From NCBI GenBank assembly GCA_017513085.1, contig JAFWDK010000010.1:1-64000 (forward strand): a stretch of 64,000 nt of DNA, written 5' to 3'. This document shows, piece by piece, positions 5,072-29,562 of this stretch. A model generated the notes under the pieces. That model was not told the origin of the DNA. It was given only the letters and a program-made list of their open reading frames with translations, and did no database searches. Every line of letters starts with the position of its first letter. Within the stretch, counting starts at the first letter, position 1. The stretch comes from Clostridiales bacterium. Its GTDB lineage: Bacteria > Bacillota > Clostridia > Saccharofermentanales > Saccharofermentanaceae. The position numbers were made by a program, and so were the translations under genes.

Positions 5072-5239
5072 AGGAATCCTCCGATATATGGAAAAAAGTA
5101 TTCGCTTGCAACATTATAACAATAACTTTGACTATAGAGAAATAACATTACTGCGATATAGAACATTATATTCTTCTGTTTTTTACGGATAAAAATGTAT
5201 GCTATAATCAAAAAAACGTCGAAAGCTGAGAACAGAACG

Positions 5240-8759: not shown

Positions 8760-9911
8760 ATGGATAGAGGAATCAATACACGATGTTTACATCTAGAAGA
8801 GACAGAAGGAAAGTTCGATAACTATGGTGCACTGAGTTATCCGATCTACCAGACGGCGACATATGCACATCCGGCTGTCGGACAAAGTACAGGATACGAT
8901 TACAGCCGTCTTCAGAATCCGACACGAGAGAACCTCGAGAAGATAGTAGCTTCACTGGAGCACGGAACGGATGCATTTGCGCTTTCAAGCGGAATGGCGG
9001 CGATCTCGTTGCTTTTTGAGCTTTTTAAGCCGGGTGACCATATTGTTTCGGAAGCGGATCTTTATGGTGGAAGTATCCGTCTGTATGACCATGTTTCCAA
9101 GAAGAACGGATATGCGTTTACTTTCCTGAATTGTGCCAAGGATGATGTGGAAGCGGCGATCCGGTCGAATACCAAAGCTATTTATATTGAGACGCCCACG
9201 AACCCGATGATGAATGTGTCGGATATCCGTAAGATATCGGAGATCGCGAAGCGGCATGATCTTCTTCTTATCGTGGATAATACATTCCTCTCACCATATT
9301 TCCAGAATCCATTGGATCTGGGTGCGGATGTTGTGATCCACAGCGGGACAAAGTTTTTAGGCGGCCATAATGATACTTTGGCGGGCTTTATCGTTACCAA
9401 TAAAACTGAGATCGCGGAAAAACTACGTTTCCTGATCAAGACGACCGGCGCAGGACTTGCACCATTTGACAGCTGGCTTTTGCTGCGTGGTATCAAAACT
9501 TTGGGCCTTCGTATGGAAAAAGCCCAAAAAAATGCACAGGAACTTGCTGCATGGCTTAAGAAACAAAAGAATGTAACAGATGTTTTTTATCCGGGTCTTC
9601 CGGAACACCCGGGATACGAGATCATGAAAAAACAGGCCAGAGGTTTCGGTTCCATGATCACATTCAATGTGGATACGAAAGAGCATGCCCTGGCTATTCT
9701 TCAGGAAGTCCGGATGATAAAATATGCAGAAAGCCTTGGCGGAACCGAGACGCTCATTACCTATCCGACTACCCAGACCCATGCGGATGTGCCGGAGGAA
9801 GTGCGATTGAAAAACGGAATTACTCCCAGAACGCTTCGGCTGTCGACAGGCATCGAAGATGTAGAGGATCTGATCTTCGAATTGGAAAAAGTTTTTTCAA
9901 AGATCGTTTGA
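8760..9911 (+). CDS. PLP-dependent trans-sulfuration enzyme (cystathionine gamma-synthase/beta-lyase family)
   Basis: YSRLQNPT, SSGMAA, ETPTNP, DNTF, HSGTKFLGGHND and ESLGG motifs. Confidence 0.9.
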   Translation: MDRGINTRCLHLEETEGKFDNYGALSYPIYQTATYAHPAVGQSTGYDYSRLQNPTRENLEKIVASLEHGTDAFALSSGMAAISLLFELFKPGDHIVSEADLYGGSIRLYDHVSKKNGYAFTFLNCAKDDVEAAIRSNTKAIYIETPTNPMMNVSDIRKISEIAKRHDLLLIVDNTFLSPYFQNPLDLGADVVIHSGTKFLGGHNDTLAGFIVTNKTEIAEKLRFLIKTTGAGLAPFDSWLLLRGIKTLGLRMEKAQKNAQELAAWLKKQKNVTDVFYPGLPEHPGYEIMKKQARGFGSMITFNVDTKEHALAILQEVRMIKYAESLGGTETLITYPTTQTHADVPEEVRLKNGITPRTLRLSTGIEDVEDLIFELEKVFSKIV

Positions 9912-12121: not shown

Positions 12122-13024
12122 ATGACGATCCTACAATTAAAGTATGTGATTTCCATTGCTAATTCCAAGTCGCTTCGAGAAGCGGCAAGCCGTCTTTTTG
12201 TTTCGCAGCCGGCGCTTTCCACGGCGATCCGGGAACTTGAGGAAGAACTGGGCATACGTCTTTTTGAGAGGACGAATAAAGGAATACGTCTGACTGATCA
12301 GGGCAATGAATTCCTTGCATATGCCAAAGAAGCGGTCAGCCGTTACGAATTGATCGAAGACCGGTATCTCGATCAGGATAAGGAAAAGATCCATTTCAGT
12401 GTTTCCATGCAACACTATGTTTTTGCTGTTCATGCTTTTATCAATGTGACGAAGGAAGCGGACCCAGAGAAATACGTGTTTTCTGTACATGAGACACGCA
12501 CCGATGAGGTTTTGAACAATGTAAGAAGCCTCAAAAGTGAGGTGGGTGTTATCTCTTTTTCAAGAAGCAATGAGAAGGTCATGAAGAAGCTTTTCCGCGA
12601 ATATCAGTTAGAGTTTACACCGCTTCTGACAAGAGAAACTTTTGTCTATGTATGGAAGGATCATCCGCAAGCCCATAAGAAAGAACTGTCGCTCGAGGAT
12701 ATGAAGAATTACCCGTGCATTTCCTTCGACCAGAGCAGCGAAAGTGAATTCTATCTGACTGAAGAAGCACTGGGCGATCACGAATTCGATAAACTGATCA
12801 AGACGAATGACCGTGCCACTTCGGCTGAACTGATGGCTGCTCTGAACGGCTATTCGATCGGAACCGGCATTATGATCAACAGTTTGACTTTGAAAGAGGG
12901 GTTTGTCAGCATAAAACTGAAAGAAGAAGACCCTCTTACGATCGGGTACATCGTGCGAAGCAATCATAGTTTAAGCGGGATTGCACAAAGATATGTGGAG
13001 GAGCTTCTAAAATATCGAGAATAA
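12122..13024 (+). CDS. LysR-family regulator (MtaR/MetR/CmbR-like), paralog 2
   Basis: MTILQLKY...SLREAASRLFVSQPALS HTH; SMQHY and DRAT motifs. Confidence 0.9.
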   Translation: MTILQLKYVISIANSKSLREAASRLFVSQPALSTAIRELEEELGIRLFERTNKGIRLTDQGNEFLAYAKEAVSRYELIEDRYLDQDKEKIHFSVSMQHYVFAVHAFINVTKEADPEKYVFSVHETRTDEVLNNVRSLKSEVGVISFSRSNEKVMKKLFREYQLEFTPLLTRETFVYVWKDHPQAHKKELSLEDMKNYPCISFDQSSESEFYLTEEALGDHEFDKLIKTNDRATSAELMAALNGYSIGTGIMINSLTLKEGFVSIKLKEEDPLTIGYIVRSNHSLSGIAQRYVEELLKYRE

Positions 13025-13094: not shown

Positions 13095-13113
13095 CTTGTC
13101 CGGTGCTTTTGGT

Positions 13114-13181
13114 GATAAAAACACCTTATTGCAAACGATAAAACATAAGCATTTTTCAAGCTGACGGCCTCATGCTATGAT
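13114..13181 (+). promoter_or_regulatory. LysR-type box plus extended -10 promoter (ABC importer operon)
   Basis: GATAA-AAACACC-TTATT (13114-13130); TGcTATGAT with the hexamer at 13176, 62-nt spacing. Confidence 0.7.
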
Positions 13182-13269
13182 TTTTTCAGGTAAGAAAAAA
13201 CGAACCGGAGCGAAAGGATCGACCGGCATAAATGTATTCTTAACTGAAATCAAAGGGGAGGAAACAAAG

Positions 13270-14352
13270 ATGAAAAAAACACGAATGAGAATGATTTCTA
13301 CGTTGCTTGCTGCGACGTTAAGTATTGGTGGTTTGTCAGCATGTAGCAAGAAGGAAAACGCAGGTTCTTCTTCTTCGGACGGATCGCAAAGTTCAGGGAA
13401 GGCCGATATCGTGATCGGCACGGCTAATGGGTCGCTCTGTCTGGCCCCTCTTCATATCGCCATAGATAACGGTTATTTCGAAGAGGAATTTAAGGCGGCA
13501 GGTGTGACTTGGAGAGTGGAAGAAATCGACCTGGGAAATATCTCAGAACTGGTGGCATCGAATAAGATCGATGCTTCCACTCAATTGGCCGGTGCCATGA
13601 TCCCGCAAGTGGATAACGGACTGGAGATCACTTTTACAGCAGGTCTTCATACCGGATGTACCAAGTATTACACCAAAGACGGATCCGGGATCGAGTCAGT
13701 CGCAGATCTGAAAGGAAAGAAGATCGGTGTTCCTGGTATCGGAGATTCATCGGTGATCGCACTGAAGAGATTGCTTCATGATAACGGAATCGGCGTGACG
13801 ACTGAGAATCTCGAAGTGGAATGGGTCGTATACGGCTTAACGGATCTGCCTCTGGCACTTCAAAATGGCGCAATCGATGTTGCGGCGCTTCATGATCCGG
13901 TCGCCTACAGCGCAGAGCAGGAATACGGCTTTAAGAAGATCCTCGATCTCAGCACAGATGAGAAGTTTGCCAATGAATATTGCTGTATGGCATTTGTGAC
14001 CAGCCGGCTTGCCAAAGAAAATCCAAAAGCGGCAGCTGCGTATACAAGAGCCATGTTGAAGGCAAGTGCTTTTGTACAGGCAAATCCAAAAGAAGCCGCC
14101 AAGATCCAGATCGATAATAACCAGTGTTCGGGAGATCTGGAAGTGAATGCCAAGCTTCTCGGATCGTATAACTACTCGCCATCTGTCAGCATCGCTTCGA
14201 AAACGATCATCGACGCGGCAAGTGAACTGATTAGGATCGGTGAACTAAAGGCGGATGATCCTTCAGAATTTGTTTCTAAAGCATTTACTACCTTTGAGGG
14301 TGTGCCGGACAGTTACAAATATGAAAACGGTAGCTTTACCGAGGTGAAATAG
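13270..14352 (+). CDS. ABC substrate-binding lipoprotein, SsuA/TauA/NMT1 family, Cys-rich
   Basis: Lipobox LSAC; DLKGKKIGV motif; SLCLAP, HTGC and YCC cysteines; start at 13270 behind GGGGAGG. Confidence 0.85.
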   Translation: MKKTRMRMISTLLAATLSIGGLSACSKKENAGSSSSDGSQSSGKADIVIGTANGSLCLAPLHIAIDNGYFEEEFKAAGVTWRVEEIDLGNISELVASNKIDASTQLAGAMIPQVDNGLEITFTAGLHTGCTKYYTKDGSGIESVADLKGKKIGVPGIGDSSVIALKRLLHDNGIGVTTENLEVEWVVYGLTDLPLALQNGAIDVAALHDPVAYSAEQEYGFKKILDLSTDEKFANEYCCMAFVTSRLAKENPKAAAAYTRAMLKASAFVQANPKEAAKIQIDNNQCSGDLEVNAKLLGSYNYSPSVSIASKTIIDAASELIRIGELKADDPSEFVSKAFTTFEGVPDSYKYENGSFTEVK

Positions 14353-14375
14353 TAAATTGTGAAAAGAGGTCTCGT

Positions 14376-15338
14376 ATGAGAAATAAACTTTTTACAGTAT
14401 CGAAATTGCTATTGCCGTTTATTGCAATAGCAATTTCAGTTTTACTGTACTACTATATTCCGAATAACGGAAAACAAAAACAGACTGCGCATCCGTACTA
14501 CCTGTTTTTTCTGGCAGTGATCGGCAGCGTGATCCTGATCGAGATCCTGATCGGGCTATTCGTTCAAAGCATCAGAAAGCGAGTCATTCATAAGGCTCCG
14601 TTTCTTACCGGCGTGATCGTATTTCTGGCTTTGCTCAACTTTGTGACAAGCAAGACAACACTTCTTCCGACACTATATTTTCCGTCGTTGGATCGCATCA
14701 TCAGTCTTCTGGTCGAAAGCCGTGTTTTTCTTTTGCGAAACATCGGAGATTCGCTGAAACTTCTGGCGACAGGATTTGCATGGGGTGCTGTGGTAGGCTT
14801 TTTTACCGGCTTGGCTTTGGGATATTTTAAAGTTGTCGGTTATTGGCTGAATCCGATCACCAAGATCATCGGACCGATCCCGACGACGGCCTGGATCCCG
14901 CTGGCTTTGTCAACATTTCCGACGACGCATAGCGCCAACGTTTTCCTGATTGCTTTTGCGGTATGGTTCCCGGTCACGCTGATGACTTCGAGCGGTATCC
15001 AAAGCATCAGTAATGTTAACTTTGAAGTATCAAGAACACTTGGTGCTTCTACGATCTACCAGATCGTGCATGTCGCGATCCCGGCAGCTATGCCGAGTAT
15101 CTTTCTCGGTGTTTTCTATGGAACGGTTTCATCTTTTGCTACCTTGATGGCCGTTGAGATGAACGGAAATTCCAGCGGAATCGGATGGTATATCAACTGG
15201 CAGAAATCCGTCATGATGTATGACGGCGTGTATGCAGGTCTGATCCTCATTGCCTTGATCTGCTCGCTGTCTCTGACACTTTTGTTTAAGGTGCGTGACC
15301 GTGTTCTTACCTGGCAGAAAGGAGTCATCAAATGGTAG
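14376..15338 (+). CDS. ABC permease, SsuC/TauC family
   Basis: Multiple TMs, PIPTTAWIP, EVSRTLGAS (EAA loop) and GIGWYI motifs. Confidence 0.88.
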   Translation: MRNKLFTVSKLLLPFIAIAISVLLYYYIPNNGKQKQTAHPYYLFFLAVIGSVILIEILIGLFVQSIRKRVIHKAPFLTGVIVFLALLNFVTSKTTLLPTLYFPSLDRIISLLVESRVFLLRNIGDSLKLLATGFAWGAVVGFFTGLALGYFKVVGYWLNPITKIIGPIPTTAWIPLALSTFPTTHSANVFLIAFAVWFPVTLMTSSGIQSISNVNFEVSRTLGASTIYQIVHVAIPAAMPSIFLGVFYGTVSSFATLMAVEMNGNSSGIGWYINWQKSVMMYDGVYAGLILIALICSLSLTLLFKVRDRVLTWQKGVIKW

Positions 15339-16117
15339 GCGAAATCAATATCAAAGACGTACACAAGAAGTTTCCGAATACAGACCCGACAAAAGAAGAT
15401 ATTGTTGCCTTGAACGGTTTCTCGCTGGACATCAAGCCGGGATCCTTTGTTAGTCTCATCGGCCCGTCAGGTTGTGGCAAATCGACACTGCTGCGTATTA
15501 TCGGAGGCTTGGATAAAGCAACTTCCGGTGAAATCTATCTTGATGGGATAAAGATAAGAAAACCAGGAAGTGACAGAGGTTTTGCTTTTCAGGGATCGAA
15601 TCTTTTTCCTTGGCTGACGGTGGAGAAAAACATCGCATTCGGACTTAAGGCGCGTCATATCTTTAAGGAACAAAAAGCATCGGTGCAGGAGTTCATCAAA
15701 CTGGTTGGACTGGAGGGCTTTGAAAAGTCTTTCCCGCATCAGCTTTCAGGTGGTATGCAGCAGAGAGCTTCTCTTGCCCGTGCCCTTGTGGGACATCCAT
15801 CCGTTTTGCTGCTCGATGAGCCGCTCGGTGCGCTTGACGCATTTACCAGAATGAATCTTCAGGATGAGATCATTAGTATCTGGAAAAAGCACAATATGAC
15901 CATGGTGATGGTTACGCACGATGTTGACGAGGCCATCTATATGTCGGACCAGGTCGTCGTCATGTCAGCCAGACCATCTAAGGTGGAAGCAATCATTGAC
16001 ATTGATCTTCCAAGACCGAGAGCACGTGCTCAGGATACATTCCAGGAATACCGTACAAAGATCCTGAATGTGCTGAATCTTGGCGGTAAAGTGGATGAAG
16101 TCGAATACTATCTGTAA
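15332..16117 (+). CDS. ABC ATP-binding protein, SsuB/TauB family
   Basis: GPSGCGKST, LFPWLTV, LSGGMQQR, LLLDEPLGALDAFTR and VTHDVDEA motifs. Confidence 0.92.
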   Translation: MVGEINIKDVHKKFPNTDPTKEDIVALNGFSLDIKPGSFVSLIGPSGCGKSTLLRIIGGLDKATSGEIYLDGIKIRKPGSDRGFAFQGSNLFPWLTVEKNIAFGLKARHIFKEQKASVQEFIKLVGLEGFEKSFPHQLSGGMQQRASLARALVGHPSVLLLDEPLGALDAFTRMNLQDEIISIWKKHNMTMVMVTHDVDEAIYMSDQVVVMSARPSKVEAIIDIDLPRPRARAQDTFQEYRTKILNVLNLGGKVDEVEYYL

Positions 16118-17772: not shown

Positions 17773-18426
17773 ATGCTAACTGCAAAGAAGATAAGTAAGA
17801 GTTATACCCAGAAGCGGAGAAAGATACTTGATTCTCTGGAGATCACTATAGACGAAGGTGAATTTGTTGCCGTCATGGGAGAATCCGGAAGCGGCAAAAG
17901 CACTTTGCTTGCCGTTCTGGCCGGTATCCTTTCTCCTGACGAGGGAGAAGTGCTTTTTGAAGGGGAAGATCTGTACTCTCTTTCGGATGAGAAGCTGGCC
18001 GATGTGCATCGTAATAAAATAGGATATGTGCCACAGAGCAACTTTTTCTTGAAGAACTATACGATACTCGAAAATATTGTGGAAGCATTTCTCTCTTCAA
18101 AAGAGAAAACGGAGGAGGAACTGACCGAAAAAGCGAAATCCTATCTGACCGATCTTGGCATTTCTGATCTCGCTGACCGTTTTCCACATGAGCTGTCCGG
18201 CGGGGAACTGAAACGCGCCGCGATCGTACGTGCTCTTCTTAGTAGTCCGGTTCTATTGATTGCCGACGAACCAACCACCGGACTGGACAGCAATACAGGA
18301 AACATCATTCTCTCGTATCTTTCCGGGTATGCTAAATCCGGGAACTCCGTGCTTGTTGCCACCCACGATGACCATGTGAAGGAGTATGCCGATTGGATCG
18401 TTGATATCAGGAAAGATCTGGAATAG
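17773..18426 (+). CDS. ABC ATP-binding protein (LolD/MacB-like)
   Basis: GESGSGKST, LSGGE, ADEPT and ATHD motifs. Confidence 0.9.
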   Translation: MLTAKKISKSYTQKRRKILDSLEITIDEGEFVAVMGESGSGKSTLLAVLAGILSPDEGEVLFEGEDLYSLSDEKLADVHRNKIGYVPQSNFFLKNYTILENIVEAFLSSKEKTEEELTEKAKSYLTDLGISDLADRFPHELSGGELKRAAIVRALLSSPVLLIADEPTTGLDSNTGNIILSYLSGYAKSGNSVLVATHDDHVKEYADWIVDIRKDLE

Positions 18427-18440
18427 AGCTTTGACAGGGT

Positions 18441-18508
18441 TATAAGCAAAACTTATCACAAACGATAAAAAGTAACGATTTTTCAAACGTGGAACGTCAT
18501 GGTACTAT
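18441..18508 (+). promoter_or_regulatory. LysR-type box plus extended -10 promoter (leader-cysK-nif-like operon)
   Basis: TATAA-GCAAAAC-TTATC (18441-18457); TGgTACTAT with the hexamer at 18503, 62-nt spacing. Confidence 0.75.
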
Positions 18509-18561
18509 TAACTCATCCCGAACAGGGAAAGCAAAAACTCATCAAAAGGGAGGTAATGAAC

Positions 18562-18648
18562 ATGAAGAATATGATGGATCGAAACAATATGCAGATGTGT
18601 TGCATGTGTTGTATGTGTTCGACATGTTTAACTACAGAATCGAAATAA
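18562..18648 (+). CDS. Met/Cys-rich leader peptide [28 protein letters not shown] (28 aa; not in the ORF track)
   Basis: GGGAGGT RBS 7 nt upstream; 7 Met plus 6 Cys in 28 codons; an alternative in-frame ATG at 18556. Confidence 0.8.
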
Positions 18649-18650
18649 AA

Positions 18651-18712
18651 CTTTTGGTGAAAACAACATTTTGAAAGTAGTTGTTACCAAAAGGGTAGCA
18701 GCTAATTTTTTT
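18651..18712 (+). terminator. Attenuator: overlapping antiterminator and terminator hairpins
   Basis: Terminator TAGTTGTTACC-aaaag-GGTAGCAGCTA (18678-18704) plus A-T7; competing stem CTTTTGGT-gaa-AACAAC (18651-18667) pairs with GTTGTTACCAAAAG (18680-18693). Confidence 0.8.
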
Positions 18713-18730
18713 GTCAAGGAGGACATAACA

Positions 18731-19666
18731 ATGAGTGAGATTAAACAAAGTGCTTTGGAACTGATCGGCAATACGCCGTTACTTCAATTGAATGGTTATT
18801 CCAAAAAGAGAGAGATTACAGAGGCAACCGTTCTTGCCAAACTTGAATACCTGAATCCGGCCGGATCCGTAAAAGACAGAATCGCACTGGCCATGATCGA
18901 GGATGCAGAGCAGAAGGGTCTTCTGAAGCCGGGCGCAACGATCATCGAGCCGACATCCGGTAACACAGGTATCGGACTTGCTGCAGTAGCTGCGGCGAAG
19001 GGTTATAAAGCAGTTCTGACACTCCCGGATACGATGAGTGTTGAAAGAAGAAACCTTCTTAAAGCTTACGGTGCTGAACTGGTTCTCACAGAGGGCGCTA
19101 AGGGCATGAAGGGTGCTATCGCCAAAGCTGAAGAACTGAATAAAGAGATCGAAGGATCGATCATCCTTGGACAGTTTGTCAATCCGGCAAACCCGAAGGT
19201 GCATAAGGAAACAACAGGACCGGAGATCTGGAAGCAGACAGACGGTAAAGTAGATATTTTCGTAGCAGGTGTTGGTACCGGCGGAACAATTACCGGTACA
19301 GGTGAATACCTGAAGTCACAGAATCCTAACGTAAAGGTCGTAGCTGTTGAGCCGGCTACAAGTGCCGTGCTTTCTACAGGCGTTGCCGGCGCACATAAGA
19401 TCCAGGGAATCGGCGCAGGTTTCGTACCGGATGTCCTGAATACCAAGGTATATGACGAGATCATCCCGATCGCAAATGAAGATGCTTTTGCAGAAGGTAA
19501 GGCATTTGCTCTTTCCGAGGGTATCCTGGTTGGTATCTCTTCCGGTGCAGCTCTTAAGGCAGCTGAGATCCTTGCTAAGCGTCCGGAGAATAAGGGCAAA
19601 GTTATCGTAGCGCTTCTTCCTGATTCCGGTGACCGTTATCTCTCTACACCTCTGTTCAATTCCTGA
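18731..19666 (+). CDS. cysK: Cysteine synthase A
   Basis: [33 protein letters not shown] and GDRYLST motifs; start at 18731 behind AAGGAGG. Confidence 0.95.
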
Positions 19667-19681
19667 CAGAAACAGAAGACG

Positions 19682-20546
19682 ATGAGTCATACTTATCAAG
19701 ACTTACAAAACTCCCACCCGTGTTTCGGGGGCCAGAAAAACAACGCCGGAAGGATCCACCTTCCGGTGAGCCCCGGGTGCAACATCGCTTGCCGATTCTG
19801 TGACCGGACCATAAACGATGTTGAGGAACGGCCGGGAGTGACATCCAAGGTGTTAAAGCCAGCTGAGTGCGAAGATATTTTGACAAAAGCACTGGAGATC
19901 TGTCCTGATATCAAAGTGGCCGGTATTGCCGGTCCCGGAGATACACTGGCATCCGATAATGCACTAGAGACCTTTCAAATCATCAAACAGAAATTTCCAC
20001 AGTTGATCAAGTGCATGAGTACGAACGGACTTCTTCTGAATGAAAGGGCGGAAGATGTGATCCGGGTAGGGATAGATTCGTTAACTGTGACCGTAAATGC
20101 AGTAGATCCTGAGATCGAATCAAAGCTTAATGCGTATATCATCTATCATGGTGAAAAGATCGAAGGCGTGGAGGGCGCGAAGATACTTATCCAAAACCAA
20201 CTGGAAGGTATCAGGAAAGTATCTTCCGCCAAAATCACGGTCAAGGTCAATACAGTGCTTGTTCCGGAAATCAACGGAGATCACATCGAAACGATCGCCA
20301 AGACGGTAAAAGAAGCAGGAGCGACGATCTACAATATCATTCCATTGATACCGCAGCATGAGTTGAAGGATGTAAAAGCCCCGACATGCGCACAGATCGA
20401 CGAAGCCCGAACCAAAGCATCGAAATACATCGATGTATTCAGACACTGCCAGCACTGCCGCGCGGATGCGGTAGGAGTACCGGGAAAGAGTGAATATGGT
20501 GATCGGATCTACCAGAGAAGACTCGGTGTGAAGGAGACATTTTCAC

Positions 20547-20554
<8 letters not shown>
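19682..20554 (+). CDS. nifB: NifB-type radical SAM cofactor-assembly protein (SAM domain only)
   Basis: HPC, RIHLPV, CNIACRFC, ERPG, IAGPGD, STNG and CQHCRADAVG NifB motifs. Confidence 0.88.
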
Positions 20555-21769
<1,215 letters not shown>

Positions 21770-21805
21770 TTATTTAAATATCACATATTACAGGAGGAAC
21801 ACATC

Positions 21806-22822
21806 ATGGGAAAGATTTATAATTCCATCACAGAACTGGTCGGACATACCCCGATCGTTGAATTTAAAAGACTTGAAGAAAAACTTGGCTTGAAGGGTCG
21901 CATTGCCGGAAAACTCGAATACTTTAATCCGGCCGGATCCCATAAGGACAGAATGGCTCTGGAAATCATCGAGGCAGCGGAAAAGCGAGGTGAAATCAGC
22001 CCGGATAAAACAACGCTTGTTGAGTTCACAAGCGGTAATACCGGAGTAGCAATGGCTGCTTTTGCCGCGGCAAAGGGTTATAAGTTCAAGATCGGTCTTC
22101 AGAATGGTGTATCGGTCGAAAGACTGAAGCTGCTGCAGGCATATCAGGCAGATATTGCCGATGTACCGCAGGAGCTGATCGCAGGCGTTTTTGAAAAAGG
22201 TATTGCTGCATTTGCAGATGTTATTGAATACATGGAAAAGGGCGTGGAGCATCCGTTCTCTACGCGTCAGCTCGATAACCCGGATAACATCAATGCACAC
22301 TATAAGCACACCGGTCCGGAGATCTGGGAAGATACTGACGGAAAAGTAGATATCTTTGTCGGTGGCGTAGGTACAGGCGGATCCACACATGGCGTAAGTA
22401 AGTTCCTGAAGGAAAAGAACCCGAACGTAAAAGTCGTTATCACACAGCCGCAGCCGGAAGACGTTGTCAATTCAAAGGTAGAAGGTGCGGAGGACGGCGG
22501 TTTCCATGGTATCCATCAGGTACATAACGACGACGGCCTGACCCCGATGGCTCCGACAAACTTTAATGGAAATCTGTCGGATGAATATTCGTTCATAAGT
22601 TATGCAGAGACACTCCGTGCGATCCACCTGCTTGCAAAGTACGAAGGAATCTTCGTCGGTGCTTCTGCCGGCGCATCCCTGGCTGTTGCCATCAAGCTGG
22701 CGCAGAAAGAGGAGAATGCAGGAAAACTGATCGTACCGCTCTTGCCGGATAACGGTGAGCGCTACCTGTCTGAGGATCTTCAGAATATCCGTCCGGAACT
22801 GGAAGAAAATCTTGCTTTCTAA
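21806..22822 (+). CDS. Divergent cysteine-synthase-family PLP enzyme
   Basis: NPAGSHKDR, EFTSGNTG, GVGTGGS and GERYLS motifs; HKIQGIG replaced by FHGIHQV. Confidence 0.85.
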   Translation: MGKIYNSITELVGHTPIVEFKRLEEKLGLKGRIAGKLEYFNPAGSHKDRMALEIIEAAEKRGEISPDKTTLVEFTSGNTGVAMAAFAAAKGYKFKIGLQNGVSVERLKLLQAYQADIADVPQELIAGVFEKGIAAFADVIEYMEKGVEHPFSTRQLDNPDNINAHYKHTGPEIWEDTDGKVDIFVGGVGTGGSTHGVSKFLKEKNPNVKVVITQPQPEDVVNSKVEGAEDGGFHGIHQVHNDDGLTPMAPTNFNGNLSDEYSFISYAETLRAIHLLAKYEGIFVGASAGASLAVAIKLAQKEENAGKLIVPLLPDNGERYLSEDLQNIRPELEENLAF

Positions 22823-22839
22823 GAAAAGGAAAAAAACAC

Positions 22840-24306
22840 ATGGCTATTAATCTTTCTAATTCGAATGTCGCCACCAGAGAAAACCGTATCGGTTCCATCA
22901 CAGGTTATGTAGGAACTCTTAAGGATCTGGCGACACAGAGTGAATGTGGAACATTGAAAGGCTGTTCCCGCTGTTTCTCACAGTCCAGTACATGTCTTTC
23001 TTCCTGCGCACTCGGACAGCTTTGCGGTATCCGTGATGTGGCTTTGATCCATCACGGTCCGGCAGGATGTTCCGTAGCGGCAGCCGGTGCCTATTACATG
23101 TCGAAAGTTATGTCAAAAAAGCGCGGCGTGACCAGTAATACGATCTATGTCGGAACCGACATGAATGAGAACGATACGATATTCGGATCGACCAATGCTC
23201 TTCGCAACGTTATCCTTGAAGTCAACAAGAGATATTCACCGAAAGCAATCTTCGTATCCAGTTCCTGTGCAACAGGTATCATCGGTGAAGATATCGACAG
23301 TATCGTAGATGAAGTCAGAGATGAAGTAGGTGTTCCAATTGTTGCGGTACACTGCGAAGGTTTTAAGTCCCGTATCTGGGCGACCGGTTTCGATATTTCC
23401 GATCATGCTGTCCTTCAGTCGATCGTACAACCACCGAGAGAGGGTGTAAAAACCAATAAGATCAACTTCAAAAACTTCTTCGAAAGCGCCCGTCCGGAGA
23501 TCATCGAAATGTTTAAAAAGTTCGATCTGGATCCGGTATTCCTTTACTGTAATTCTACTGTCGAAGAACTTTCCCATATTTCTGAGAGTCTTGCTACCAC
23601 ATGTATCTGCGGAACCTTAGGTAACTACCTGGGTAATGCTCTGGAAGAGAAGTATGGTGTTCCTTATGTAAGATCGATTAACCAGTGTGGTATCGTTGGT
23701 TTTGAAGCTTGGCTCCGTGAGATCGGTAAAGTAACAGGAAGATCCGAGCCGATCGAGAAATATATCGAAGAGCAGCGCGCGATCTATCTTCCTCAGATCG
23801 AAGAGGTCAAGAAAAAACTTCAAGGAAAGACAGCTGTTCTGGGCATGGGTCCCGGTTATACATTCGAGGTATCCCGTGTACTCAATGAGCTTGGCATCAA
23901 AGTCGTTTGGGCTCTGGCATGGCACTATGATAAGAAGTATGAAAACGGTGATGTACCGCCGTCCATGAAGTATCTTCTGGATAATGACATCGATTTTGAG
24001 GCAAGTGTTGCCGACCAGCAGAATTATGAGGTTATGAATGTACTTCATAAGTATCAGCCGGATATGTATCTTTCCCGTCATCCGGGTTCCACGGTATGGG
24101 CGATCAAGAACGGCACACCGGCTATATATGTTGCAGATGAATACATGATCTTCGGCTATAAGCATACACTTGAATTTGCCAAAACGATCGTAGATGCAAT
24201 CGAGAATAGAAGCTTCGAAGAGAATCTTGCGAAGCGTACAAAACTTCCTTACACCGACTGGTGGTATCAGCAGAATGTGGATAAATTCCTGGAGGAAACG
24301 AAATAA
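22840..24306 (+). CDS. Nitrogenase component 1 alpha-like subunit D1 (MarD-like)
   Basis: P-cluster-type Cys in FSQSSTC, HGPAGC and SSCATGIIGEDID; CEGF; cofactor-type Cys in CICGTLG. Confidence 0.85.
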   Translation: MAINLSNSNVATRENRIGSITGYVGTLKDLATQSECGTLKGCSRCFSQSSTCLSSCALGQLCGIRDVALIHHGPAGCSVAAAGAYYMSKVMSKKRGVTSNTIYVGTDMNENDTIFGSTNALRNVILEVNKRYSPKAIFVSSSCATGIIGEDIDSIVDEVRDEVGVPIVAVHCEGFKSRIWATGFDISDHAVLQSIVQPPREGVKTNKINFKNFFESARPEIIEMFKKFDLDPVFLYCNSTVEELSHISESLATTCICGTLGNYLGNALEEKYGVPYVRSINQCGIVGFEAWLREIGKVTGRSEPIEKYIEEQRAIYLPQIEEVKKKLQGKTAVLGMGPGYTFEVSRVLNELGIKVVWALAWHYDKKYENGDVPPSMKYLLDNDIDFEASVADQQNYEVMNVLHKYQPDMYLSRHPGSTVWAIKNGTPAIYVADEYMIFGYKHTLEFAKTIVDAIENRSFEENLAKRTKLPYTDWWYQQNVDKFLEETK

Positions 24307-25604
24307 TGGCGAAACTATTAGACAAGCAAAGATATAAATGCGCACTCGGCGCGATGCAGACCGTTCAGGCGATCGACCGGGCACTTCCGATCCTTCACTC
24401 CGGTCCGGGCTGCGCACAGAAACTTTCTGAATCCACAGGAAGCTCCGGTTATTTCTCTCCGAACATTTTCCCTTGCACCAGTATCAACGAAAAAGACGTT
24501 GTATTCGGCGGTGTAAAGAAACTGGATTCCACGATCCAGAATGCTTTGAAGGTTATCGATGCAGATCTCTATGTGGTATTGACCGGTTGTATCCCTGAGA
24601 TCGTAGGTGATGATTCCGGTGAAGTCGTATCACGGTACGAAGACGCGGAGAAGCCGGTGGTCTATGCTCCGACAGCAGGCTTTAAGGGTAATAACTACCG
24701 AGGTCATGAACAGGTCGTGGATGCAATCATTGACCAGTATCTCAAGAAGTCCGATAAGCAACAGAAGGGACTGATCAATATCTGGGCAGATGTACCTTAC
24801 CAGGATCTTTTCTGGCTCGGAAATCTCCGTGAACTGGAAAAACTCATCTCTGAACTCGGACTTACCCCGAATACGATCTTCGGCTATAAGCGTGGTATCG
24901 AGAATATCAATAAGATCCCGGAAGCGGAATTTAACCTCCTCGTATCTCCATGGGTCGGATTAGGCAACGTGAAGAAGATGGAGAGAAAATTCGGTACGCC
25001 GTATCTTCACTATCCGACTCTTCCGATCGGTGCAACCGAGACCAGCAAATTCCTCCGCGAAGTCGGAAAGTTTGCCGGCGTAGCAGAAGAAAAAGTGGAA
25101 GCCGTCATCAAGGAACATGAGGATTACTACTACTACCTGATCAGCCGATATGCAGATCTTTTCCTTGAGAACCGCGTTATCAACAAGCAGTTTACGGTGG
25201 TGGCAGATGCCCAGTATTCTCTGGCGATTACCAAGTTCCTGGTCAACGACTTAGGATTGATCCCGGCAAAGCAGTTCGTCGTGGATGATACCCCGAAGAA
25301 CTATCGTGAGGCGATCACAGAGGAATTCAAAAAACTGAATTTCGGTATCGAAGCAGAGGTTTCTTTCGAAACTGACGGATATAAGATCCATGAAGAGATC
25401 AAGTCGCACGATTATCACGGTTATCCGCTTGTGTTTGGTGGATACTATGAGAAGGAAATCACAGAGGACCTTAAAGGTAACTTTCTGAACATTTCCTGGC
25501 CGGTTCAGGATAAAGTCGTTCTTGACCGGTTCTACGCCGGATATGAAGGCGGAATCCGCTTGATCGAAGATATTTATACCGTTGCTGTTTCAAGATTCAA
25601 CTGA
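24306..25604 (+). CDS. Nitrogenase component 1 beta-like subunit K1 (MarK-like)
   Basis: RYKCALG, HSGPGC, EKDVVFGG, TGCIPEIVGDD and YAGYEGG motifs. Confidence 0.85.
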   Translation: MAKLLDKQRYKCALGAMQTVQAIDRALPILHSGPGCAQKLSESTGSSGYFSPNIFPCTSINEKDVVFGGVKKLDSTIQNALKVIDADLYVVLTGCIPEIVGDDSGEVVSRYEDAEKPVVYAPTAGFKGNNYRGHEQVVDAIIDQYLKKSDKQQKGLINIWADVPYQDLFWLGNLRELEKLISELGLTPNTIFGYKRGIENINKIPEAEFNLLVSPWVGLGNVKKMERKFGTPYLHYPTLPIGATETSKFLREVGKFAGVAEEKVEAVIKEHEDYYYYLISRYADLFLENRVINKQFTVVADAQYSLAITKFLVNDLGLIPAKQFVVDDTPKNYREAITEEFKKLNFGIEAEVSFETDGYKIHEEIKSHDYHGYPLVFGGYYEKEITEDLKGNFLNISWPVQDKVVLDRFYAGYEGGIRLIEDIYTVAVSRFN

Positions 25605-25624
25605 GAAATATTGCGTGGGAATAG

Positions 25625-25655
25625 GCCGGATACATGGAAGAAAAGTGTGTCCGGC
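25625..25655 (+). other. Intra-operon stem-loop between K1 and the second nifX-like gene
   Basis: GCCGGATACAT-N9-GTGTGTCCGGC 11-bp stem with G-U pairs and no long U-tract. Confidence 0.55.
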
Positions 25656-25689
25656 ATATTCTTAAAACAGAAAAGAAAGGAGTCCGAAT

Positions 25690-26154
25690 ATGGCTTATTA
25701 CATCGCAATCGCTTCTTCCAACGGGAAAAATGTGGATCTGAAGTTCGGTGAGACAAGACAGTTCTATGTTTACGAGATAGAAGGAAAAGATCTGGCGCTT
25801 AAAGAGATCCGATATGCGAAGGAGAAAGATGCACAGGCCGACGGAGCTTCTTCATGTAACGAAGGCGGAAATGGCGGATGCTCCGGTTCCGGCGGAGGAT
25901 GTTCCGGAAACGGAGGAGGCTGCGGTGGCGGAGCTGAGGTGATCGGTAAAGTTGCCTTGATCGAAGATTGCCGTGCTGTAGTTTGCAAGAAAGTTGGATT
26001 TCAGGCACAAAAGCAATTTGAGAAAAAAGCCATCTCGGTCTTCGATGTCGAGTGTAGTGTCGAAGAAGCGCTCGAAAAGATCACTTCCTACTATTATAAG
26101 ATCGATAACCGTCAATCACTTCGCTCTCGTGAAGTGCCGACGGAAGAAGTATAA
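25690..26154 (+). CDS. NifX/NifB-C family protein with a Gly/Cys-rich insertion
   Basis: IAIASSNG...KFG; insertion SCNEGGNGGCSGSGGGCSGNGGGCGGG; DCRAVVCKKVG. Confidence 0.8.
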   Translation: MAYYIAIASSNGKNVDLKFGETRQFYVYEIEGKDLALKEIRYAKEKDAQADGASSCNEGGNGGCSGSGGGCSGNGGGCGGGAEVIGKVALIEDCRAVVCKKVGFQAQKQFEKKAISVFDVECSVEEALEKITSYYYKIDNRQSLRSREVPTEEV

Positions 26155-26181
26155 AGCAGCAAGCAGAAAGGAGTTTTATAC

Positions 26182-27636
26182 ATGGCGAACGTGACGTATT
26201 CCGGTGTCAGAGAAAGCAAGCCTGGACGTCTTAACGACTTGGGTTCGACCGGACAAGAGGTCAGTGAAAACTTTAAAAAGGGATGCCTGAAGAGAGCGGA
26301 CAGAAGTTTTGCACAAGGACTTCAGTGCCAGCAGATCAACAGCCTGGCGGCTCTGATGTCACTGGAAGATGCAGTCTTCATTTCCCATTCACCACAAGGC
26401 TGTGTGGGATGTGCGATCATGGCGATCGATATGTATCGTGTCGGTCAGATCCATCGAGGCATCCGTAACGTGAAGAATCCGCGTCTGATCGTGTCCAATA
26501 TCGATCAGAAAAGCGTAGTATTCGGAGGCGAGAAGAAACTTCGTGAAGCCGTGAAAAAAGCAGTCGAGAGATACTCTCCGAAACTGATTTTTGTCTTTGC
26601 CTCCTGCGCATCCGGTATTATCGGTGATGATATCGATGCGATCTGCTCGGATCTTCAGACAGAATACCCGGACCCATTGATCATTCCGATCCATTGCGAA
26701 GGATTTAAATCGAAGATCTGCGCATCCGGATTTGATGCGGCATTTATTTCGATCAACAAGTATATCCTGAAGCATAAGAAGATCGAGAAGGAAGCTGGAT
26801 TGATCAATCTTTTTGCACCGACAACAGTCAGCTATGCTGACCAGAAAGAGATGGAGAGAATGCTTCAGCTTCTCGGTGCCAAGGTAAACTATATCCCGTT
26901 TTACAGTTCTCTTGAAAAGATCAAGAGGATCCCTGCAGCAGAAGCTTCGACTTCGATATGCAAAGTATTCGCAGATGAGTTCATGAAGACTCTTTATGAA
27001 GATTACGATATTCCTTATTCACATACGGTCATGCCGATCGGTATCCGTAACACGGATAAGTGGTACAGAGGTATTGCTAAGGTCATTGGAAAAGAGAAGG
27101 AAGTGGAGGAGATCATCGCCAAAGAACATGAGAGGATCGAACCACTTGTTAAGAAGCTTCGTGACCGTCTTAACGGAAAGCGTGTATTCATCTGTGGCGG
27201 TACAGGACGTTCTTTTGCCGCAGCAGCCCTGATCGATGACTTCGGCATGAAACTTGTCGGACTGGAAACCCCTACTTACGATGACGATGCACAGGTCGAT
27301 ATCGAATATCTCAATGGGATCCATAAGGACTTCGTCGTGGATATTGCGAACATGCAACCGTTTGAACAAGTCAATCTGGTCAATAAACTGAAGCCGGATG
27401 CTTTCATCGGCGTACCGGAATGGGCGGCAAAGCTCGGTATACCTACGACACATGTTCTGGATGGTAAACGTCCTACCATGGGTTACGACGGTCTTTTGTT
27501 CCTGGGAAACAAGATTGCCGATCAGTTGGAGAACCCGGGATTTAATAAGAAACTGTCCGAGCACGTCAAACTTCCGTATAAGGAATCCTGGTATCAGGAA
27601 GATGCATTTAAGTATATTACGAAAGGAGAAAACTGA
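26182..27636 (+). CDS. Nitrogenase component 1 alpha-like subunit D2
   Basis: FAQGLQC, HSPQGC, VVFGG, ASCASGIIGDDID, HCEGF, SICKVF and MGYDG motifs. Confidence 0.85.
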   Translation: MANVTYSGVRESKPGRLNDLGSTGQEVSENFKKGCLKRADRSFAQGLQCQQINSLAALMSLEDAVFISHSPQGCVGCAIMAIDMYRVGQIHRGIRNVKNPRLIVSNIDQKSVVFGGEKKLREAVKKAVERYSPKLIFVFASCASGIIGDDIDAICSDLQTEYPDPLIIPIHCEGFKSKICASGFDAAFISINKYILKHKKIEKEAGLINLFAPTTVSYADQKEMERMLQLLGAKVNYIPFYSSLEKIKRIPAAEASTSICKVFADEFMKTLYEDYDIPYSHTVMPIGIRNTDKWYRGIAKVIGKEKEVEEIIAKEHERIEPLVKKLRDRLNGKRVFICGGTGRSFAAAALIDDFGMKLVGLETPTYDDDAQVDIEYLNGIHKDFVVDIANMQPFEQVNLVNKLKPDAFIGVPEWAAKLGIPTTHVLDGKRPTMGYDGLLFLGNKIADQLENPGFNKKLSEHVKLPYKESWYQEDAFKYITKGEN

Positions 27637-27637
27637 C

Positions 27638-28927
27638 ATGTCTGAGATCATGGAAAATCCCAAGGGTGGATGTGTACTGGCCGGTATCAATTCGGTCCTT
27701 GGTGCCATTGAAAGAGTGTGCCCAATCTATCACAGCGGCCCCGGCTGCTGCATGCAGACATCTGCATCCGATCAAGGTCAGTCAGGACACAAATCATCCT
27801 GCTTTGTAAGCAGTGTGTCGATCCCTTCGAGTAATATGCTGGAGAAAGAAGTAGTCTTTGGAGGAACCAACAAGCTTCGTACGACGATCCAGGGTGCTAT
27901 CGATATTATCGATGCAGATGCATACTTTGTTCTGACAGGCTGTACGGCAGGTATTATCGGAGACGATATTGCCAGCATAACGAATGAATTTTCTGAAAAA
28001 GGTATCCCGGTCTATCCGATCGAAACACCTGGTTTTACCGGTGACAGCAATCTCGGATATGAGACGGTCTGGAATACATTCCTGGATAAGGTCATCGACA
28101 AAAATGTGCCGAAGGATGATAAACTCGTCAATATTTTCGGTATCATTCCGTATCATGACCCGTTCTGGAGCGGCACACTGGAAGAGATCGATCGTATCCT
28201 TTCCCGTCTGGGTCTTCGCGTCAATACGTTCTTTACTAAAGGACAGGGTATTGAAGATGTGAAGAAGAGTTCCGCTGCAGCGCTGAACATTATTGTTAAT
28301 CCGTGGCTTTTCAAAGGGCCTGCCGCAAAATACGAAAGCAAGTTCGGTGTACCGAGTCTTCGGATCCCAGGTTTGTTTGTCGGTGCGACAGATACGACCA
28401 GATTCGTCAGAAAGGTCGCAGAAACGCTGAATCTGGATAAAGATCTGGTGGAGTCGGTAATTGCTTCTGAAGAAAAATATGTATATCACTACCTTGAACA
28501 GTCTATTGGCGTATTGAGCTGGAAGCGCTTCGCTGTGGTGGCGGATGCGAATAATGCTATCGGATTTACCCGGTATCTTGCCAATGACTATAGTTTTACA
28601 CCGGTGCTGGTCATTGTGTCTGAACCGATCTTCCGTCCGGAAGATAAGGAGAGGATCATCAAGGAGATCACTGACCTTGAATATGCCCGCCCGCCGAAAG
28701 TTCTTTTCCTTACGGACCAGTATGAGATCAATAAAGCGATCCGTGAAGAAGAACAGGAGATCACGCTTCTTGTTGGTTCAAGTAACGACAGGGAGATCGC
28801 TCTGGAAAAAGATATCCAGTTCATCCTGGGAAGTTTCCCGATGAGCGAGCGTTTGATCTTCAACCGAACATATGCAGGTTATCGTGGCAGTCTGACGTTT
28901 ACGGAAGACATCTACGACAACAACTGA
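27638..28927 (+). CDS. Nitrogenase component 1 beta-like subunit K2
   Basis: ENPKGGCVLAG, HSGPGCC, EVVFGG, TGCTAGIIGDD and YAGYRG motifs; start at 27638 behind AAGGAG. Confidence 0.85.
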   Translation: MSEIMENPKGGCVLAGINSVLGAIERVCPIYHSGPGCCMQTSASDQGQSGHKSSCFVSSVSIPSSNMLEKEVVFGGTNKLRTTIQGAIDIIDADAYFVLTGCTAGIIGDDIASITNEFSEKGIPVYPIETPGFTGDSNLGYETVWNTFLDKVIDKNVPKDDKLVNIFGIIPYHDPFWSGTLEEIDRILSRLGLRVNTFFTKGQGIEDVKKSSAAALNIIVNPWLFKGPAAKYESKFGVPSLRIPGLFVGATDTTRFVRKVAETLNLDKDLVESVIASEEKYVYHYLEQSIGVLSWKRFAVVADANNAIGFTRYLANDYSFTPVLVIVSEPIFRPEDKERIIKEITDLEYARPPKVLFLTDQYEINKAIREEEQEITLLVGSSNDREIALEKDIQFILGSFPMSERLIFNRTYAGYRGSLTFTEDIYDNN

Positions 28928-29019: not shown

Positions 29020-29454
29020 ATGAGTGAATGTGAATATGAGATCATCGATTCGTGCGAAAACATCGATTTTGCAGAAGTCAGTGAACTGTTGAAGTTCTAT
29101 GGTCTTAGTGACCTGGACGGCGACACGCAGAAACGCGTCTTTCAGAACAGCTATGTGACGATTTTTGTGAAGAAAGAGAACGAACTGATCGGCGTGGGAA
29201 GGGCCATTTCAGACGGCATTACCCAAGGCGCGATCTATAACATTGCAGTGAAGGACGAATACAGGGGAAGAGGACTTGGAAAACGTATAGTAGATGAGAT
29301 CCTAACCAGGCTTGCCGGCTGCAACGTGGTCTTGTACACACATCCTAAACATATCGGACTATACGAACACTGGGGCTTCCGGAGAATGCGCACTTCGTAT
29401 GCCAAATTCGAAAGAGAAGAATACTTCGAACAGGAAGGCTTTTTCGTAGAGTAA
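29020..29454 (+). CDS. GNAT-family N-acetyltransferase
   Basis: LIGVGRAISDG, IAVKDEYRGRGLG (motif A) and LYEHWGF. Confidence 0.9.
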   Translation: MSECEYEIIDSCENIDFAEVSELLKFYGLSDLDGDTQKRVFQNSYVTIFVKKENELIGVGRAISDGITQGAIYNIAVKDEYRGRGLGKRIVDEILTRLAGCNVVLYTHPKHIGLYEHWGFRRMRTSYAKFEREEYFEQEGFFVE

Positions 29455-29460
29455 ATATGT

Positions 29461-29528
29461 TATAAGTTATGCTTATAGCTAACCATATAATCAAACGATT
29501 ATTCAAGAACGCTTTCCTCTGTTATCAT
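29461..29528 (+). promoter_or_regulatory. LysR-type box plus extended -10 promoter (lanC-like operon)
   Basis: TATAA-GTTATGC-TTATA (29461-29477); TGtTATCAT with the hexamer at 29523, 62-nt spacing. Confidence 0.75.
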
Positions 29529-29562
29529 GTGCGTAATAAGTGAGAAGAAAGAGGATACGACT

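Follow-up and report, generated by a model that had tools for sequence, protein, structure and literature searches.

The classical leader-peptide attenuators, trpL, hisL, thrL and ilvL of Escherichia coli and Salmonella, consist of a short open reading frame (ORF) led by a Shine-Dalgarno (SD) sequence and enriched in codons for the end product, of a terminator placed before the first structural gene, and of a mutually exclusive antiterminator which shares the 5′ arm of that terminator. The thr and ilv leaders sense more than one amino acid in a single run. In Bacillota, leader-peptide attenuation is rare, and sulfur genes are normally under the control of S-boxes, T-boxes or CymR. We describe here a stretch of 64,000 nucleotides from a Clostridiales bacterium of the family Saccharofermentanaceae (contig JAFWDK010000010.1, positions 1 to 64,000 of the forward strand, hereafter called the window), in which a 28-codon ORF rich in Met and Cys codons, followed by a predicted terminator/antiterminator switch, precedes a cysK-like gene and a nitrogenase-like operon. 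Judging from its sequence and from that of its relatives, this leader probably acts by ribosome-mediated transcription attenuation, sensing Cys and Met.

The general layout is that of the classical systems: an SD-led ORF enriched in a few codons, reminiscent by its Met/Cys run of thr and ilv, a terminator ahead of the first structural gene, an alternative pairing that would take over its 5′ arm and, in the window, a stop codon so placed that a terminating ribosome would cover the antiterminator arm. The differences lie in the amino acids, Cys and Met, in the Clostridia host, in an antiterminator arm located wholly downstream of the stop codon, and in the ORF itself, where no region 1 was found, the sole candidate being upstream of the SD. 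Compared to S-boxes (SAM-I), Cys and Met T-boxes and CymR, the outcome would be the same, namely that sulfur genes are shut off when Cys, Met or S-adenosylmethionine (SAM) are plentiful, and S- and T-boxes also work through a terminator and an antiterminator. However, the proposed sensor is a ribosome on a coding run, and not a ligand- or tRNA-binding RNA, and the operator found upstream (see below) more likely belongs to a LysR-type regulator than to CymR.

Leaders with Cys codons have been reported elsewhere. According to the accessible text of one study (PMC8632094), uORFC-8-2, located upstream of cysS in Rhodobacterales, is a predicted attenuator made of a Cys-codon upstream ORF, a stem and a U-run; its two Cys codons stand in tandem at positions 14-15, a Met run is lacking, and it controls a cysteinyl-tRNA synthetase gene of Alphaproteobacteria. 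The present leader, in contrast, has 6 Cys and 7 Met codons, cysK and nitrogenase-like targets, and no sequence relation to uORFC-8-2. Cys leader ORFs were also predicted in Actinobacteria, for which the available part of a 2005 survey reports no conserved terminators (PMC1262725), and in mycobacteria polycysteine leaderless ORFs act on translation, by sequestering the downstream SD, with an experimentally established effect for Ms5788A, as stated in the accessible part of the report (10.1101/834739). Our leader shares with these ORFs a run of Cys codons upstream of cysteine or sulfur genes, but unlike the mycobacterial ones it has its own SD, a canonical terminator and a mixed Met/Cys content, and its Cys run is not paired with the cysK SD. 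Finally, a His leader peptide upstream of hisS/hisZ paralogues in bacilli is a predicted attenuator (PMC2965389). It resembles the present case in being a Firmicutes leader peptide where a T-box would be expected; amino acid, genes and lineage differ, and the accessible text of that article names no Cys or Met leader.

The elements of the leader region are as follows, in coordinates of the window:

18516-18528, forward strand: 5′-terminal hairpin TCCC-GAACA-GGGA, from the fold and from double changes
18539-18548, forward strand: candidate anti-antiterminator (R1), TCATCAAAAG; its partner in the minimum-energy fold of the full length is 18651-18660
18545-18553, forward strand: SD of the leader ORF, AAAGGGAGG, with a purine-rich counterpart in every orthologue
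18562-18648, forward strand: leader ORF, 28 codons and TAA, open and in frame in 14/14 genus-level copies
18595-18618, forward strand: MCCMCCMC codon run, proposed ribosome stalling zone, with a further Cys codon at 18625-18627
18651-18667, forward strand: predicted antiterminator 5′ arm (R2), CTTTTGGT-gaa-AACAAC, from the pre-terminator fold, shuffles and masking
18678-18693, forward strand: shared segment (R3), terminator 5′ arm TAGTTGTTACC and loop AAAAG, which pairs with R2 or R4
18694-18712, forward strand: terminator 3′ arm (R4), GGTAGCAGCTA, then A and T7, from the fold and a terminator scan
18716-18722, forward strand: SD of cysK, AAGGAGG, for the ATG at 18731
18731-19666, forward strand: cysK-like gene for a pyridoxal-phosphate (PLP) enzyme of the O-acetylserine sulfhydrylase family (PALP, E 1.4e-75), first gene after the switch

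An earlier note on this DNA, made from the letters alone, had claimed a strong ribosome-binding site, a sulfur-rich ORF of 28 codons, an unbroken MCCMCCMC run and a stop codon just ahead of an antiterminator arm. Reading of the sequence bore out these points: the SD AAAGGGAGG lies 8 nt 5′ of the ATG at 18562, 7 Met and 6 Cys make up 13 of the 28 codons, the run sits at 18595-18618, and the arm begins 2 nt after the TAA at 18646-18648. An alternative in-frame ATG at 18556, which would add two residues, is only 2 nt from the SD. The distance from the end of the ORF to cysK is 82 nt. With a background of 4.4% of Cys and Met codons in the long ORFs of the same genome, the binomial probability of finding at least 12 of them among 27 non-start codons is ∼5e-10. 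Seven Cys/Met-rich mini-ORFs were detected by a six-frame scan of the whole genome (3.06 Mb), among which the leader ORF alone combines an SD and a downstream T-run. Five of its 6 Cys codons are TGT, compared to 43% genome-wide, which is not significant (P ∼0.06). The peptides of the window and of two loci introduced below (L110 and L037) had no Pfam or NCBIfam match at E up to 10, and no tRNA gene was found in the window.

A search of sequencing runs for this region gave 6 runs, in none of which half or more of the sequence words occurred. The four that were compared with the window consist of assembled contigs, in which ends, strand and levels are unreadable and uncovered stretches (for instance 18670-18903 in library X1) are uninformative. 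A single 151-nt contig of metatranscriptome library X2 matches 18532-18682 without difference; it is weak evidence, because DNA carry-over is possible. A contig of X1 spans 18159-18620, X1 being only guessed to be RNA, so that this contig may be DNA.

The switch described in the note was recovered as well. The arm at 18651-18667, CTTTTGGT-gaa-AACAAC, has its complement, GTTGTTACCAAAAG, at 18680-18693, and TAGTTGTTACC/AAAAG/GGTAGCAGCTA at 18678-18704 forms an 11-bp terminator, followed by A and T7 at 18705-18712, before the cysK ribosome-binding site. The note had called for a folding check, and the minimum-energy fold of 18515-18735 indeed includes the terminator. This fold of 221 nt reaches −54.4 kcal/mol (z −3.78, 0/200 shuffles as stable), and the terminator, with its 11 pairs, was also listed by a terminator scan. 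When folding was restricted to the pre-terminator RNA, the window antiterminator had −12.5 kcal/mol, none of 300 shuffles being as stable, and dropped to −4.1 when the 10 nt behind the stop were masked.

A search upstream of homologous operons, also suggested in the note, returned Cys/Met-rich ORFs and compensated terminator stems in the orthologues. The full leader and the cysK start were present in 13 of 23 same-genus genomes, with 76-85% identity, and a MarB-like gene, taken as the marker of the operon, in 14 of them. In the 14th marker genome, which lacks the leader, the contig ends inside cysK, 250 bases beyond the start of the MarB-like gene. None of the 9 genomes without the MarB-like gene has the leader. 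Given these 13 genomes with both and 0/9 marker-less genomes with a leader, we concluded that the leader is present wherever the start of the operon is assembled, and that leader and operon travel together.

ORF, SD, terminator and a predicted alternative pairing are kept in all 14 genus-level copies, in which the ORF has 24-28 codons, with 5-6 Cys and 5-7 Met each. It varies mainly in codons 8-10 and in the tail (L013 differs by one in-frame 3-nt codon deletion), the N-terminal MKNMMDR and the core QMC[CG]MCCMCS[TA]C being nearly invariant within the genus. Stems were analysed on 14 sequences, namely the window, 12 orthologues and the more diverged L079; L006, identical to L005 in leader peptide and stems, was dropped. 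The terminator stem is intact (11/11 pairs) in 11 of the 14, with 10/11 pairs in two others and 9/11 in L079, and double changes are observed at pair 1 (T-A in 4 sequences, C-G in 9) as well as at pairs 2, 8 and 9. Its 5′ arm is nearly invariant, with GTTGT of R3 present in 14/14 sequences and GTTGTT in 13/14, and its 3′ arm toggles between A and G opposite U. Such a conservation of the 5′ arm, far above that of the 3′ arm, is what one expects of a segment with two partners. Conservation among orthologues extends to the CCTTTTG and AACAAC motifs of R2, and folding of the pre-terminator RNA yields the antiterminator for 13 of 14 genus-level copies and for L110, with −7.7 to −12.5 kcal/mol (L016 has −11.3 in the shuffle-test calculation). 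At the 5′ hairpin, 18516-18528, all 4 pairs show double changes (GC 9/UA 3; CG 9/UA 2; UA 8/CG 5; CG 6/UA 3). Rfam gave no match in positions 10000-35000 of the window at E up to 1, T-box and SAM riboswitch included, and none at gathering score in 13 + 19 related loci.

More distant Clostridia copies were found at three loci. L079, an uncultured Clostridia record, has MKNTAYMKETMCQMCCMCCTSGSEL, then CCTTTTGTTGAACAAC, a terminator and cysK. In L110, from another genus of the same family, MNKRLMCRGMCMRMLMCRCSRHKT stands behind AAAGGAGG and is followed by cysK; its terminator (−17.8 kcal/mol) is unrelated in sequence, and a 14-bp antiterminator is predicted to start 4 nt past the stop. L127, from a third genus, encodes a peptide of 40 codons (MKRMCRCMEMNDHC... 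/ MKRMCRCMEMNDHCDPNMQLM...), and a long hairpin with T7 stands directly before the MarB-like gene, without cysK. All three retain ORF and SD, and they keep the layout and the Cys/Met richness, with different peptide and stem sequences. That codon content and layout are preserved while the letters are not argues for a regulatory leader over a functional peptide. A uniform filter, which asked for an SD, a T6 run, no fewer than 7 Cys/Met within 20 residues and a minimum of 3 Cys, passed exactly L110 and L127 out of 29 loci (∼110 kb), and 2 distinct ORFs out of the organism's own 3.06 Mb.

In other families of Clostridia, 16 more loci with a MarB-like gene (L111-L126), together with L128, gave no Cys/Met mini-ORF with SD and T-run, a result that falls short of showing absence. 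In L120 and L124, cysK-marB follows a plain promoter with no mini-ORF. Among seven other loci inspected, six have coding sequence upstream of the MarB-like gene, which places the operon start outside the locus; in the seventh, L111, this upstream region is non-coding and contains no mini-ORF. A different structured leader was noticed before the MarB-like gene in another Clostridia family (L115:1180-1483): it has a hairpin and T-run, AGAGGCTTACG...CGTAAGTCTCTTTTTT, and a CGATAAGTAA-like upstream motif, with no mini-ORF and no Rfam match.

Similar mini-ORFs occur in other phyla. With one genome per species, 185,579 in all, a scan for the pattern M-C-x-M-C-C-M-C gave 86 stretches, compared to ∼4 expected for random sequence, a count that GT-rich repeats inflate. 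Eighty loci were fetched, 11 of which are the genus itself. The run lies in an open frame of at most 70 codons in 57 of the 80 loci, and in 32 of these 57 a hairpin with T-run is found within ∼130 nt behind it. The peptides fall into distinct families (Ferruginibacter, Saprospiraceae/Lewinellaceae, Cryomorpha, Fodinibius, Acidobacteriota, Longimicrobium and Actinotignum), with mini-ORFs, in most cases followed by a hairpin and T-run, at the following loci:

Ferruginibacter: L037:1059-1250, L047, L059, L063, L070, L090
Lewinellaceae/Saprospiraceae: L050, L065, L094, L096
Acidobacteriota: L058, L099, L102
Longimicrobium: L030
Actinotignum: L026, L038, L043, L045, L068
Further loci: L067; L101

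Downstream genes were tested in nine cases. Six are MetY-like, sulfite reductase, PAPS reductase or rhodanese genes, of unambiguous sulfur-assimilation families (Cys_Met_Meta_PP and NIR_SIR, two each, PAPS_reduct and Rhodanese), two are unspecific (SBP_bac_3 and Bac_luciferase, families which include cystine-binding proteins and alkanesulfonate monooxygenases) and a single one (DUF732) is unrelated. The 5′ arm of the terminator can pair with the codons just behind the run in Ferruginibacter, Saprospiraceae, Acidobacteriota and Longimicrobium, and these predicted antiterminators within the ORF tail are the textbook attenuator arrangement. No Rfam match was obtained among the loci of other phyla that were checked. 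In L050 (minus strand), a truncated MetY-like start (∼38 codons) comes after the leader and its terminator, and behind it stand a second similar upstream region and a full MetY-like gene, which looks like a local duplication.

The sequence shows the elements, their conservation, the compensated terminator and the strict linkage to the operon; in the course of events that we propose for the window, it is inferred that the ORF is translated, that ribosomes stall on it, that kinetics decide between the two hairpins and that sulfur sets the outcome. The leader peptide would report the supply of charged tRNA-Cys and elongator tRNA-Met, and would let this gut anaerobe switch on the operon only in want of sulfur amino acids. 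Transcription would begin near 18515, from a promoter with a shared operator, and a ribosome would load on the strong SD and translate the 28 codons. With plentiful Cys and Met, it would pass MCCMCCMC, reach the stop at 18646 and cover 18651-18660; with the antiterminator arm so covered, the 11-bp terminator (18678-18704 and T7) would form and transcription would end before cysK. When sulfur amino acids are scarce, the ribosome would stall on the Cys/Met codons at 18595-18627, which would leave 18651-18667 free to pair with 18680-18693, and in the absence of a terminator polymerase would read through into cysK and the methylthio-alkane-reductase-like (MAR-like) genes. Without any translation of the ORF, termination may be enforced by a pairing of 18539-18548 with 18651-18660. 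The core of the dual Cys and Met attenuator put forward in the note, a Cys/Met-rich leader ORF with a switch gating cysK and the operon, is supported by comparative evidence; its stop-masking step fared less well.

This step was examined in 15 sequences, by holding 10-13 nt after the stop single-stranded. Masking strongly weakened the antiterminator in only three of them, the window, L110 and L079, to which this part of the claim applies. Several results weigh against the attenuation model, and the first is that in 4 of the 15 the weakening was just 3.3-4.6 kcal/mol, and in 8 of the 15 the shift was at most 2.1 kcal/mol. The first paired nucleotide, moreover, lies 10-16 nt past the stop in 10 of the 15, and we concluded that stop masking is not general. 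The spacing from stop to arm ranges from 2 to 15 nt among orthologues; the last Cys codon is 23 nt from the arm in both copies where this was measured (window and L010), and the stop codon floats. This hints that the position of a stalled ribosome may matter more than that of the stop. The antiterminator is also less distinctive elsewhere than in the window, since no more than 2 of the 14 sequences surpass their shuffled spacers (the window, 0/300, and L004, 5/300), with 14-125 of 300 shuffles as stable in the remaining 12. The terminator outranks it in stability in every orthologue, which means that read-through must be kinetic.

Nor was a region-1 partner for the antiterminator arm found within the ORF. 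Duplexes of codons 9 to stop with R2 were computed for the 15 sequences, and as none had 10/200 or fewer shuffles as stable, a region 1 inside the ORF was rejected. R1 at 18539-18548 is a possibility as an anti-antiterminator from its complementarity to R2, but, being upstream of the SD, it would be left uncovered by a ribosome stalled at codons 12-22. Cognate R1:R2 duplexes have −7.4 to −18.4 kcal/mol, and non-cognate pairs score alike, because purine-rich SD regions pair with any CCUUUU-type arm; in L015 and L016 the R1 and R2 sequences look compensated, yet here too non-cognate combinations score as well. Two further features are superfluous to the model or unexplained by it. Only one synonymous change was found in the first 7 codons across 13 genus-level orthologues, which suggests that peptide or RNA is under some additional constraint. 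Within 18560-18632, the sequence around the start codon, AACATGAAGAATATG, and the last part of the Cys run, TGTGTTCGACATGTT, are able to form an internal hairpin which buries the start codon; both halves are invariant in the genus, and covariation neither supports nor refutes it. Such a hairpin might restrict translation to a ribosome loading co-transcriptionally. Last, RNA polymerase of Bacillus subtilis is reported to outrun the ribosome, which would disfavour ribosome-mediated attenuation in Bacillota.

Alternatively, the switch could be real but set by an RNA-binding protein, by an unrecognised ligand- or tRNA-binding fold or by the SD-proximal segment, translation of the ORF only tuning or coupling it. 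The lack of stop-masking geometry in 8 of 15 orthologues and of a region 1 in the ORF, the very strong nucleotide conservation of the 5′ half of the ORF and of the Cys run, the invariant hairpin that can bury the start codon and the apparent compensation of the SD-proximal:R2 pairing in L015/L016 all fit such a scheme. But Rfam gives no match, even with E allowed up to 1, the internal hairpin, being invariable, has no covariation support, and what survives in L079, L110, L127 and the leaders of other phyla is the Cys/Met richness, not the RNA sequence; we regard this explanation as unlikely. The 5′ hairpin, with its covariation, looks like a stabiliser, and polycysteine ORFs are experimentally cysteine-responsive in mycobacteria, according to the accessible part of the study (10.1101/834739), so that the ORF might likewise act on translation or mRNA stability, through access to the cysK SD or protection of the transcript. 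The cysK SD at 18716-18722, however, lies beyond the T-run and is unpaired with the Cys run in the fold, and every orthologue has a hairpin and T-run with compensatory changes, rebuilt from other sequence in L110 and L127, which leaves this last scheme very improbable.

The peptide itself could be the product that matters, a functional Cys-rich micro-protein (metal- or cluster-binding protein, sulfur carrier or precursor of a ribosomally synthesised and post-translationally modified peptide, RiPP), the terminator setting the ratio of peptide to enzyme mRNA. RiPP clusters commonly have partial terminators after precursor genes. MKNMMDR and QMC[CG]MCCMCS[TA]C are nearly invariant within the genus, and two genes of a suggestive kind are nearby, a LanC-like gene (29527-30954) and a radical-SAM/SPASM gene (7523-8614). 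The LanC-like gene is syntenic, ∼11 kb downstream, in genomes G020 and G009, with a partial match in G008; G002 and G375, on the other hand, carry the leader and have only 31-33% LanC paralogues, on other contigs. With synteny in 2 of 5 genomes checked and one partial, the link to LanC and RiPPs was judged weak. Moreover, the radical-SAM gene beside cysK is a MarB/NifB-like maturase of the nitrogenase-like system, the peptide has no Pfam or NCBIfam relative within the limit given above, between genera its sequence is not kept whereas its Cys/Met richness is, and elsewhere mini-ORFs with the same run precede unrelated sulfur genes, with classical antiterminators inside their coding tails. We consider it doubtful, at long odds, that the peptide is the functional product, and retain attenuation as the probable role of the leader.

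Two elements located upstream of the leader bear on its transcription:

18438-18486, forward strand: operator-like DNA GTTATAAG..CTTATCAC..CGATAA..CGATTTTTCAA, with a second copy at 13111-13159
18480-18508, forward strand: putative promoter, with a −35-like TTTTCA (18480-85), a 17-nt spacer, and an extended −10 made of TG (18500-01) and TACTAT (18503-08)

TG and TACTAT are invariant in the 14-sequence alignment; a consensus promoter scan did not list 18480-18508 (weak −35). We infer a transcription start near 18513-18516, with which the covarying hairpin at 18516-18528, directly after the −10, is in agreement, and the leader ORF would begin ∼47 nt downstream of it. The operator-like DNA at 18438-18486 matches 13111-13159 at 78%, and the latter precedes an operon for a Ssu/Tau-like (NMT1-type) ABC transporter. 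The motif TTATCACNNNCGATAA has 7 matches with at most 2 mismatches, compared to 2.07 expected, being exact at 18453 and with 2 mismatches at 13126, and the element TTAT[CT][AG]C-N3-CGATAA ... ATTTTTCAA is conserved in 13 orthologues, L079 and L110. LysR-type regulator genes are found at 12122-13024, directly upstream of the transporter, and at 5195-6151, and the operator is probably bound by a LysR-type sulfur regulator. Since this 49-bp element recurs before the transporter, the operon is probably under promoter-level control as well.

Downstream of cysK, the nitrogenase-like operon comprises the following genes:

19682-28927, forward strand: nitrogenase-like operon, full extent
19682-20554, forward strand: radical-SAM MarB/NifB-like gene, short protein
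20547-20903, forward strand: NifX-like
20900-21769, forward strand: NifH-like
21806-22822, forward strand: second PALP (PLP) enzyme
22840-24306 and 24306-25604, forward strand: D/K-like pair
25690-26154, forward strand: NifX-like, between the two D/K-like pairs
26182-27636 and ORF 27398-28927 (true start probably later), forward strand: second D/K-like pair

The nearest relatives of both D-like proteins are the solved MAR-type chains 9fmg_A and 9d9u_A (E 2.6e-88 and 7.2e-69), with NifD at 7e-37 or weaker; the two D/K-like pairs may be two enzymes, or one enzyme and an E/N-like scaffold. The entry 9FMG appears in the accessible text of a methylthio-alkane reductase paper. According to the available part of a 2026 article (PMC13753814), nitrogenase-like genes of Group IV are co-localised with those for cysteine synthase, and Clostridia include functional methylthio-alkane reductases. 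From these similarities the operon appears MAR-like and is expected to supply reduced sulfur.

The upstream part of the window is a sulfur island, with the two LysR-type regulators, a PLP enzyme, a CysE-like protein and an ABC transporter:

8760-9911: PLP enzyme of Cys/Met metabolism
13177-16117: NMT1-type ABC transporter

An aminotransferase is also encoded there, and the CysE-like protein is a hexapeptide-repeat protein. Within the island, 7188-8614 holds a 112-residue ORF without Pfam match, followed by the radical-SAM/SPASM protein (363 residues, 7523-8614), which could be sulfatase-maturase-like or peptide-modifying. After the nitrogenase-like genes, 29020-30954 encodes a GNAT acetyltransferase and the LanC-like protein.

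As to novelty, the note had presented its attenuator as undescribed. The Clostridia host, the Met/Cys run and the target do appear to be new; Cys-codon upstream ORFs with terminators and Firmicutes leader peptides, on the other hand, had already been predicted. A mixed Met/Cys leader, or any such leader in Clostridia or Bacteroidota, was not found in the full text of open-access articles and bioRxiv preprints; one could still stand among the many more attenuator and upstream-ORF candidates that the supplements of PMC2965389 and PMC8632094 contain. The accessible parts of a 2026 review and of a 2026 survey of nitrogenase-like enzymes do not mention leader peptides, riboswitches or T-boxes, and in those of the review "attenuat" and "CymR" are absent too. 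Because the literature search found only Cys or His precedents and no mixed leader, the mechanism is of a known kind, and the family, the amino-acid pair, the host lineage and the target operon appear new.

On a wider scale, we tentatively suggest, at a little short of even chances, that leaders with alternating Met and Cys codons (MCCMCCMC and its relatives) and a terminator form an undescribed class of "sulfur attenuators", arisen several times, gating sulfur-assimilation or scavenging genes in Bacillota, Bacteroidota, Acidobacteriota, Gemmatimonadota and Actinomycetota, and that the Clostridia version controls methylthio-alkane-reductase-like relatives of nitrogenase. The recurrence of a Met/Cys run followed by a terminator suggests a signature, general and easy to annotate, for operons of uncultured bacteria that are regulated by sulfur. 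These mini-ORFs go unannotated because they are too short for routine gene callers. If the attenuation model is correct, it would give a way into the regulation of the nitrogenase-like, MAR-type operons by which gut and rumen anaerobes scavenge sulfur, and it would imply a working coupling of ribosome and polymerase in a lineage of Bacillota, where such coupling is thought to be weak.

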